DNA of 526 nucleotides, from NCBI RefSeq assembly GCF_003334255.1, contig NZ_QOWU01000226.1; one strand, 5' to 3'. This stretch comes from Escherichia coli (GTDB lineage: Bacteria; Pseudomonadota; Gammaproteobacteria; Enterobacterales; Enterobacteriaceae). Below are positions 1-526 of this stretch, in pieces. The translations under genes and the position numbers were made by a program. How positions within the stretch are numbered: position 1 is the first letter of the stretch; every line of letters starts with the position of its first letter. Below the pieces are notes generated by a model, which saw only the letters and a list, made by a program, of their open reading frames with translations, had not been told where the DNA came from and did not search any database.

Positions 1-526
1 ATGCAACAGAAGGTACTGCGTTAGGGGCAAAGGCAACAGTAACAAATAAAAACAGTGTTGCATTAGGTGCTAATTCTGTAACCACTCGTGATAACGAAGT
101 TTATATTGGCTATAAAACCGGAACCGAAAGCGATAAAACATACGGCACCCGTGTTCTTGGTGGCTTAAGCGATGGTACGCGTAACAGTGATGCGGCAACT
201 GTTGGGCAGTTAAACCGGAAAGTTGGTGGAGTTTATGATGATGTTAAAGCCCGTATAACTGTTGAGTCAGAGAAGCAGAAAAAATACACAGACCAGAAGA
301 CCAGCGAGGTTAACGAAAAAGTTGAAGCCCGCACAACGGTTGGTGTTGATTCCGACGGAAAACTTACCCGTGCAGAAGGTGCGACTAAAACTATCGCCGT
401 CAATGACGGTCTCGTTGCTCTGTCTGGCAGAACAGACCGTATTGATTATGCAGTTGGTGCCATTGATGGCCGTGTCACCCGTAACACGCAATCCATTGAG
501 AAAAACAGCAAGGCGATTGCAGCCAA
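1..526 (+). CDS. Internal fragment (5' and 3' partial) of a trimeric autotransporter adhesin-like fibrous surface protein; reading frame 3 (codons 3-5 ... 522-524)
   Basis: Seen in sequence: frame 3 on the + strand is open for all 174 codons; the other two + frames hit stops early (TAG at 22-24 in frame 1, TAA at 47-49 in frame 2). Translation contains [11 protein letters not shown] (YadA-head-like repeat), [22 protein letters not shown] (neck-like, compare the YadA neck pattern R.L..LAAG...TDAVNVAQL), and VTRNTQSI / IEKNSKAI (asparagine-at-d heptads typical of these stalks). The 174 residues contain no Cys, Trp, Met, His, Pro or Phe and are rich in Thr/Gly/Val/Ala/Asn/Lys, as expected for a repetitive fibre. 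8 of 11 Arg codons are CGT. Family assignment rests on motif recognition only. Confidence 0.8.
12..95 (+). other. Two tandem 14-residue YadA-like head repeats ([14 protein letters not shown] / [14 protein letters not shown])
   Basis: Seen in sequence: residues 4-17 and 18-31 of the frame-3 translation align without gaps (xxALGAxxxVTxxN). The pattern resembles the SVAIG-type 14-residue repeat of left-handed beta-roll head domains in YadA-like adhesins. The DNA copies (12-53 and 54-95) are diverged, so this is a protein-level repeat. Confidence 0.6.
141..215 (+). other. Neck-like connector motif ([25 protein letters not shown])
   Basis: Pattern matches the conserved neck of trimeric autotransporters: a basic residue, hydrophobic residues around a Gly, then T/S-D-A-x-x-V-x-Q-L. 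It sits immediately after the head repeats and before a charged helical-looking segment, which is the canonical order. Confidence 0.65.
231..338 (+). other. Charged Lys/Glu-rich post-neck segment with two YxD motifs (YDD at 234-242, YTD at 285-293); putative first stalk coiled-coil segment
   Basis: Seen in sequence: [36 protein letters not shown] is strongly charged and Gly-poor compared with flanking sequence. YxD motifs are known from coiled-coil stalk segments directly after the neck in YadA/Eib-type adhesins. Helical periodicity was not computed. Confidence 0.4.
441..526 (+). other. Start of heptad coiled-coil stalk with two consecutive asparagine-at-d layers ([16 protein letters not shown]); continues beyond the window
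   Basis: Seen in sequence: hydrophobic residues spaced 3-4 apart (I147, V151, I154, V158, I165, I172) with Asn at the intervening core positions N161 and N168, followed by T/S. The [IVL]xxN[TS]xx[IVL] pattern is characteristic of trimeric autotransporter stalks. The register was assigned by eye. Confidence 0.5.

Follow-up and report, generated by a model that had tools for sequence, protein, structure and literature searches.

Identity of the sequence and its genomic setting

The window, the whole 526-nt stretch of Escherichia coli DNA that was analyzed, is open from end to end in a single frame, frame 3 of the plus strand, and its translation is a 174-residue product. All 526/526 nt are 100% identical both to eibD of prophage P-EibD (AF151675.1, 1690–2215) and to eibC of prophage P-EibC (AF151674.1, 1664–2189), each from E. 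coli ECOR-9. A PDB search matched the protein to chain A of EibD (PDB entry 2XQH) at 174/174 residues (E = 1.6e-102), and the window shows no difference from EibD/EibC at either level. Window residue n occupies nt 3n to 3n+2 and corresponds to residue n + 239 of EibD and n + 232 of EibC. Entry 2XQH covers EibD 160–418, while entry 2XZR covers EibD 391–438 and takes in the window from aa 152 onward.

Identity between eibC and eibD reaches 100% exactly at window nt 1 and persists over a further 754 nt beyond the window, reaching past the gene's end into the ORF downstream. Because both genes are identical from window nt 1 onward, the window can be assigned to neither alone. Directly upstream of nt 1, 0 bases match between the two genes, and 60-nt bins there range from 38 to 95% identity; this sharp edge is a recombination (mosaic) boundary, and it falls within the head domain.

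Full-length EibD contains a YadA_anchor domain (PF03895) at residues 453–511 (E = 5.2e-16), outside the window in the same gene, as well as YadA_head repeats. With this anchor, a YadA_head match at aa 2–25, a neck, and a helix from aa 67, the product has the make-up of a trimeric autotransporter adhesin (TAA; YadA-like, type Vc), and sequence identity and prophage location place it among the Eib proteins. Non-immune binding of IgG and IgA Fc by EibC and EibD is known from the literature.

In complete E. coli genomes, close relatives are flanked by prophage tail-fibre genes on one side and an S6-peptidase autotransporter gene on the other. At loci L001, L002, L004, and L006, eib is part of a conserved prophage cassette (tail-fibre gene, DUF4376/ORF-191, eib, ORF-156, and the large S6-peptidase autotransporter Eaa), with annotated stem-loops both upstream and downstream of eib. 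A word-indexed protein search gave almost only partial E. coli fragments of ≤305 aa; the full-length genes used for comparison were drawn from annotated genomes, phage records, and plasmids.

The window gave 0 Rfam matches on either strand and no inverted repeats in a repeat search, on which grounds a non-coding reading was rejected. Minus-strand ORFs of 26–74 aa were likewise rejected, since they overlap the coding frame confirmed by identity.

Domain layout

The features of the window, with their nucleotide coordinates and strand, are as follows.

3–524, plus strand: open reading frame in frame 3, 174 codons; EibD residues 240–413, EibC residues 233–406.
3–152, plus strand: last repeats of a YadA-like β-roll head, aa 1–50; Pfam YadA_head at aa 2–25, E = 8.5e-5.
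153–212, plus strand: neck connector, aa 51–70; aligns with the necks of YadA (1P9H), SadA (2YO0/2YO3), BoaA (3S6L), and BpaC (7O23).
201–332, plus strand: post-neck helix, forming the right-handed coiled coil in the stalk of EibD, aa 67–110 (44 residues); assigned from the 2XQH domain order, AF2, and register.
234–242, plus strand (TATGATGAT): YDD motif, Y78–D80, EibD 317–319; non-canonical register, at the centre of V77–V81 (nt 231–245).
285–293, plus strand (TACACAGAC): YTD motif, Y95–D97, EibD 334–336; assigned as a canonical stalk YxD, with Thr96 at core position l.
231–342, plus strand: internal 26-codon (78-nt) repeat; copy 1 at nt 231–264, copy 2 at nt 309–342, running into the saddle.
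333–419, plus strand: saddle β-minidomain, about aa 111–139, boundaries approximate; from the literature on 2XQH and AF2 strands.
420–524, plus strand: start of the left-handed heptad coiled coil, about aa 140–174; from a periodicity of 3.50, RxD motifs, and polar core layers.

AF2 predicts β-strands in the head segment, with low pLDDT at aa 38–55. Relative to the YadA head structure (1P9H), the last head repeat carries an 8-residue insertion just before the neck. This insertion lies within nt 108–152, where AF2 confidence is lowest (pLDDT < 50 at aa 38–51). In the protein alignment, neck residues D63, A64, A65, V67, and Q69 are nearly invariant. The pattern D[AS][AV][TN]xxQ[LVIM] locates the neck at EibD 290–309 and at no other site in the Eib-family sequences of the neck-context table. 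The post-neck helix accordingly follows the last neck and precedes the membrane anchor (453–511), as the daTAA rule for a right-handed stalk demands.

The neck-like sequence DAATVGQL is repeated many times in the relatives P0097, P0098, and P0102, which are not autotransporter-like. P0098 also has a collagen-like stretch (GPEGPEGPAGPQGPKGE), and P0097 and P0102 resemble tail-fibre-like repeat proteins. These occurrences hint that the neck connector is common to phage fibre proteins.

The post-neck helix

A single helix, aa 67–110, lies between neck and saddle, and both YxD motifs fall within it. The AF2 monomer model, built on a 16-sequence alignment, shows it as unbroken with block pLDDT of 80–91; the next helix spans aa 136–173. 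The segment is not a disordered linker, an alternative raised in the initial annotation, because AF2 predicts this one confident, continuous helix. Gly75–Gly76 directly precede YDD, and the helix stays intact there in the model; the pair could nonetheless disturb it locally. The stretch from Y78 to R110 had been described as Lys/Glu-rich, and it contains 6 Lys and 5 Glu in 33 residues.

Fourier analysis of hydrophobicity over aa 67–111 peaks at 3.65–3.70 residues per turn, with power at 3.5 lower by four- to eight-fold. This peak points in the expected direction, but against shuffled sequences it is not significant (P of about 0.5) for a short post-neck segment of 41–45 residues with several polar core residues. 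The corresponding value for the YadA right-handed stalk is 3.75 (P < 0.0005), and for EibD 380–440 the peak is exactly 3.50. In the daTAA description, right-handed segments have 3.7–3.83 residues per turn (15-residue repeats or their relatives).

In a register scan of the post-neck helix, a pentadecad with position a at L70 scored best (3.09), followed by a hendecad (2.46) and a heptad (0.81). The pentadecad core comprises L70, K73/V74, V77, V81, I85, E88/S89, Q92, T96, T100, V103/N104, V107, T111, and V115. Right-handedness of the EibD post-neck residues is supported by the secondary literature together with this sequence geometry. Used by itself as a PDB query, the helix matched 2XQH only.

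YTD and YDD occupy different registers

The two YxD motifs stand where they had first been placed, directly after the neck and 17 residues apart, with YDD 11 residues past the neck valine V67 (DAATVGQL). Shuffling of the 174-aa protein yields a mean of 0.44 YxD tripeptides and P(≥2) = 0.064, while the presence of both within a fixed 41-residue post-neck stretch has a shuffle P of 0.0036. The tripeptide count alone is only suggestive; it is conservation and register that make the case for the motifs being real.

The association of YxD with right-handed stalk segments of TAAs, put forward in the initial annotation, is borne out by daTAA (PMC2373917) and by two reviews citing Alvarez et al. 2010. 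According to daTAA, YxD is general to right-handed TAA stalks and starts five residues before the end of the repeat, with x usually Thr. The reviews state that YxD stabilises right-handed coils, that RxD supports left-handed coils, and that the motif may serve as a core for folding while the protein is exported. The right-handed-stalk reading of YxD is correct, and the matter is already published.

Y95-T96-D97 occupies positions k-l-m (11–13) of the pentadecad 85–99, with Thr as x in keeping with the daTAA definition; in the best register of YadA itself, Tyr is at k in 4/5 YxD motifs. A gap-free alignment anchored on the neck puts EibD Y95 over Y239 of YadA (Y239-A-D241); the distance to the neck Val is +28 in each case. 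The form [YH]xD recurs at +28 in EibD, YadA, P0095 (YTD), and P0096 (HTD), and by eye Saa has YTN there. The YTDQK[ST] motif is kept in all Eib post-neck module types with a right-handed stalk. Judged by register and alignment, YTD is the canonical stalk YxD motif.

An alignment of the YxD positions with those of characterized stalks had been proposed as a check. YTD falls without gaps on the first YxD of YadA. Opposite YDD, YadA has QEN; the shorter EibE-type module has no YxD at this position, and Saa lacks YDD. The pentadecad register assigns Y78 to position i and D80 to k, with D79 facing away from the core (about 150° from the core direction). The angles from the core are about +55°, +150°, and −110° for Y78, D79, and D80, and about −90°, 0°, and +100° for Y95, T96, and D97; the ranges for the two Tyr residues are +49° to +63° (Y78) and −82° to −105° (Y95). 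The daTAA description of YxD does not apply to YDD, given its register (i) and its spacing of 17 from YTD.

One reading of the pair would be that successive right-handed repeats each carry a canonical YxD clamp, with YDD and YTD equivalent to one another. Both fit Y-x-D with a Lys two residues after the Asp, a paper on a Brucella TAA names "YDD and YTD motifs" together, and the YDD context aligns locally with YadA YTDSKSAETLE (score 34). Local alignments to YadA are marginal (P about 0.08). BLOSUM context scoring against the five YadA motifs does not discriminate, giving z of about 1 for both YDD and YTD. The geometry speaks against equivalence: 17 residues make up a whole number of turns for no right-handed periodicity, whereas the YadA spacings of 15, 15, and 19 are near-integral. 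In one continuous helix the spacing of 17 offsets the two Tyr residues by 131–168°, and D79 faces outward where T96 lies in the core. The QEN of YadA and the distinct motif flanks kept across the repeats of P0099 (see below) also count against it. We regard this reading as highly improbable; on register and spacing, YDD and YTD are not equivalent.

Conservation of YDD and a 26-residue super-repeat

Relatives were collected from an earlier search and from a full HMMER scan covering 1.84 billion cluster representatives. Several of them, in separate 50%-identity clusters, have Tyr-x-acid with hydrophobic flanks at exactly +11 from the neck Val, in a sample biased toward the motif by a query that itself contained YDD. 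The sequences at +11 are as follows.

P0095: KVYEDV (YED).
P0096, P0035, and P0039: EVYSDV (YSD).
P0097: GLYDEV (YDE).
P0100, a 3966-residue adhesin: DIYDDI (YDD).

P0099 contains tandem 26-residue units (KYTETKISEIYDDVRGSLSATEMKAN and KYTDQKATEIYEDVKGGLTATELKAN) in which both motif types alternate with spacings of 9, 17, 9, and 17. The flanks stay distinct across these repeats (KYTDQK as against IY[DE]DV[KR]G), and YDD or YED is present in both full tandem units while neighbouring positions vary. Hydrophobic periodicity in the tandem region is 3.70 (P = 0.01), comparable to 26/7 = 3.71, i.e., 15 + 11. The EibD gene itself has an internal repeat, nt 231–264 and nt 309–342, with 74% identity and a spacing of 78 nt. 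At the protein level, offset 26 is the sole positive offset in the EibD self-similarity (block P = 0.0046). Copy 2 of the repeat is degenerate in EibD, with NEK where copy 1 has YDD. The spacing of 17 residues between the EibD motifs reflects a 26-residue super-repeat that is clearer in its relatives.

It could be argued that YDD arose by chance in a helix that is acidic and contains Tyr, which would leave YTD as the only meaningful motif. Its lack in YadA, Saa, and the EibE-type module, the NEK of repeat copy 2, the P of 0.064 for the YxD count of the window, and the query bias of the homolog sample are all compatible with chance. Recurrence of Yx[DE] at exactly +11 in P0095, P0096/P0035/P0039, P0097, and P0100, which belong to different 50%-identity clusters, is harder to explain in this way, as is its retention in both full P0099 tandem units amid variable neighbours. 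Chance is a quite improbable explanation of the motif; from its conservation, YDD is probably not fortuitous.

The saddle and the left-handed coiled coil

Reviews describe the saddle of Eib proteins as a non-helical insertion that links the right-handed coiled coil and the left-handed one (2XQH). In the window, AF2 predicts strands at 113–115 and 121–123 with low confidence, and the next helix begins at 136. The saddle is kept in EibA, EibE, and p100. A transition from right- to left-handed supercoil within the window had been proposed on the strength of the YxD motifs, and the periodicities of 3.65–3.70 before the β-insert and 3.50 after it agree with this. Handedness changes through the saddle β-minidomain, 14 residues past the motifs, whereas YadA makes the change at its motifs.

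At the start of the left-handed coil, two overlapping RxD motifs (RTD/RID) occupy aa 143–148 (nt 429–446). RTDRID fits the pairing of RxD with left-handed TAA coils in the literature, and it resembles YadA NRLDKLDTRVD. Polar layers of the form [VI]xxN[TS] follow at V158–T162 (nt 474–488) and I165–S169 (nt 495–509), and a third heptad-spaced layer, I172xxN-T, continues just past the window. The [VI]xxNT pattern of TAA stalks is described in daTAA (PMC2373917), and layers of this type have been reported as anion-binding in TAA stalks.

Other arrangements of the saddle occur among the relatives. In EibA (L006, 2327–3505) and P0099 (residues about 262–330), a near-copy of the post-saddle segment (RTDKID…) is also found before the saddle. 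Both proteins have left-handed-type RxD segments on the two sides of the saddle, with no right/left junction. This suggests that the saddle may have been inserted into, or duplicated with, the left-handed coil. In P0095 (residues about 318–396; 62% identity to the query segment), the post-neck helix with YED and YTD has no saddle and continues directly into a left-handed Asn-layer coil, a direct transition in the style of YadA.

Comparison with other autotransporter stalks

In YadA of Yersinia enterocolitica, as in EibD, a right-handed coil of matching register comes after the neck, and the first YxD is at +28. The motif form Y-[TA]-D-x-K-[ST] is common to both, and RxD appears in each once the coil turns left-handed. 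YadA differs in having about ten 15-residue repeats, compared to about three repeats' worth in EibD, and in switching handedness within a continuous helix (3H7X/3H7Z), whereas EibD does so via the saddle. The off-register YDD motif is an extra feature of EibD.

Among closer relatives, the EibE-type and EibA-type modules, P0095, P0096, and P0099 have in common the saddle (P0095 excepted), the anchor, and the left-handed coil, and all right-handed modules contain YTD. In EibE and p100 the post-neck helix is 36 residues long and has a single YTD, five residues ahead of the saddle, and no YDD. In EibA no YxD precedes the saddle, and a review gives its upper stalk as left-handed. P0095 joins its right- and left-handed coils directly, and P0099 is distinguished by its tandem 26-residue units. 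SadA of Salmonella (2YO3) has a YTDQK word that aligns with that of EibD, but in another domain context and a much longer fibre, and the overall match is weak (E = 0.0026) and driven by head and neck.

A model of the EibD upper stalk

We consider it likely, with a probability of roughly 80%, that the window is an internal piece of eibC/eibD in which both motifs lie in the right-handed helix, YTD as the canonical motif and YDD as a second conserved one, and in which the saddle switches handedness. The encoded segment would run from the end of a β-roll head through the neck and a 44-residue right-handed coil to the saddle and the first part of the left-handed coil. If the YadA stalk is a guide, Tyr334 and Asp336 would clamp neighbouring chains around a core layer formed by Thr335. 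As the literature leads us to expect, these YTD contacts between chains would make the right-handed supercoil more stable and may act as a nucleus for folding in the course of export.

YDD belongs to a hydrophobic-Y-x-[D/E]-hydrophobic motif between the core layers of V77 and V81 (Val316 and Val320), with its Tyr and Asp predicted on core flanks opposite to those of YTD. Between these two layers, Tyr317 and Asp319 may make a contact whose polarity is reversed. More tentatively, the +11 motif might be a second, structurally distinct Tyr/Asp clamp between chains that alternates with YTD in mirrored geometry, a possibility to which we attach a limited weight. With similar reserve, in this geometry Tyr would flank one core layer on its C-terminal side, and Asp would flank the following layer on its N-terminal side. 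The literature, which treats all YxD as one motif, may not have set such a clamp apart. The two motif types alternate, 9 and 17 residues apart, in a super-repeat of 26 residues (15 + 11) with about 3.71 residues to the turn, of which EibD has one good and one degenerate copy. Downstream of the saddle, the RxD motifs and polar Asn layers would mark the left-handed heptad coil.

A different account of the Lys/Glu-rich motif helix is that it has been shaped mainly by immunoglobulin A binding rather than by coiled-coil mechanics. Leo et al. are said to have mapped the IgA site in 2011 to the right-handed segment near residues 329–344, with YTD included, and a review places IgA and IgG binding in two different regions of the EibD stalk. 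Against a predominantly IgA-driven origin, YTD at +28 is common to YadA and, as YTN, to Saa, neither of which is among the six described Eib proteins, and YxD is general to right-handed TAA stalks. The binding and structural readings are not mutually exclusive, and IgA binding as the main determinant of the helix is unlikely.

Publications from 2000 to 2011 already cover the gene, the protein and its crystal structure, as well as what YxD does in right-handed autotransporter stalks, and our understanding of the system is unchanged. The additions made here are modest: the differing registers of the two motifs, the 26-residue super-repeat behind the spacing of 17, and a saddle that is moved or absent in Eib-like relatives. 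These points could help in the annotation or engineering of adhesin stalks.
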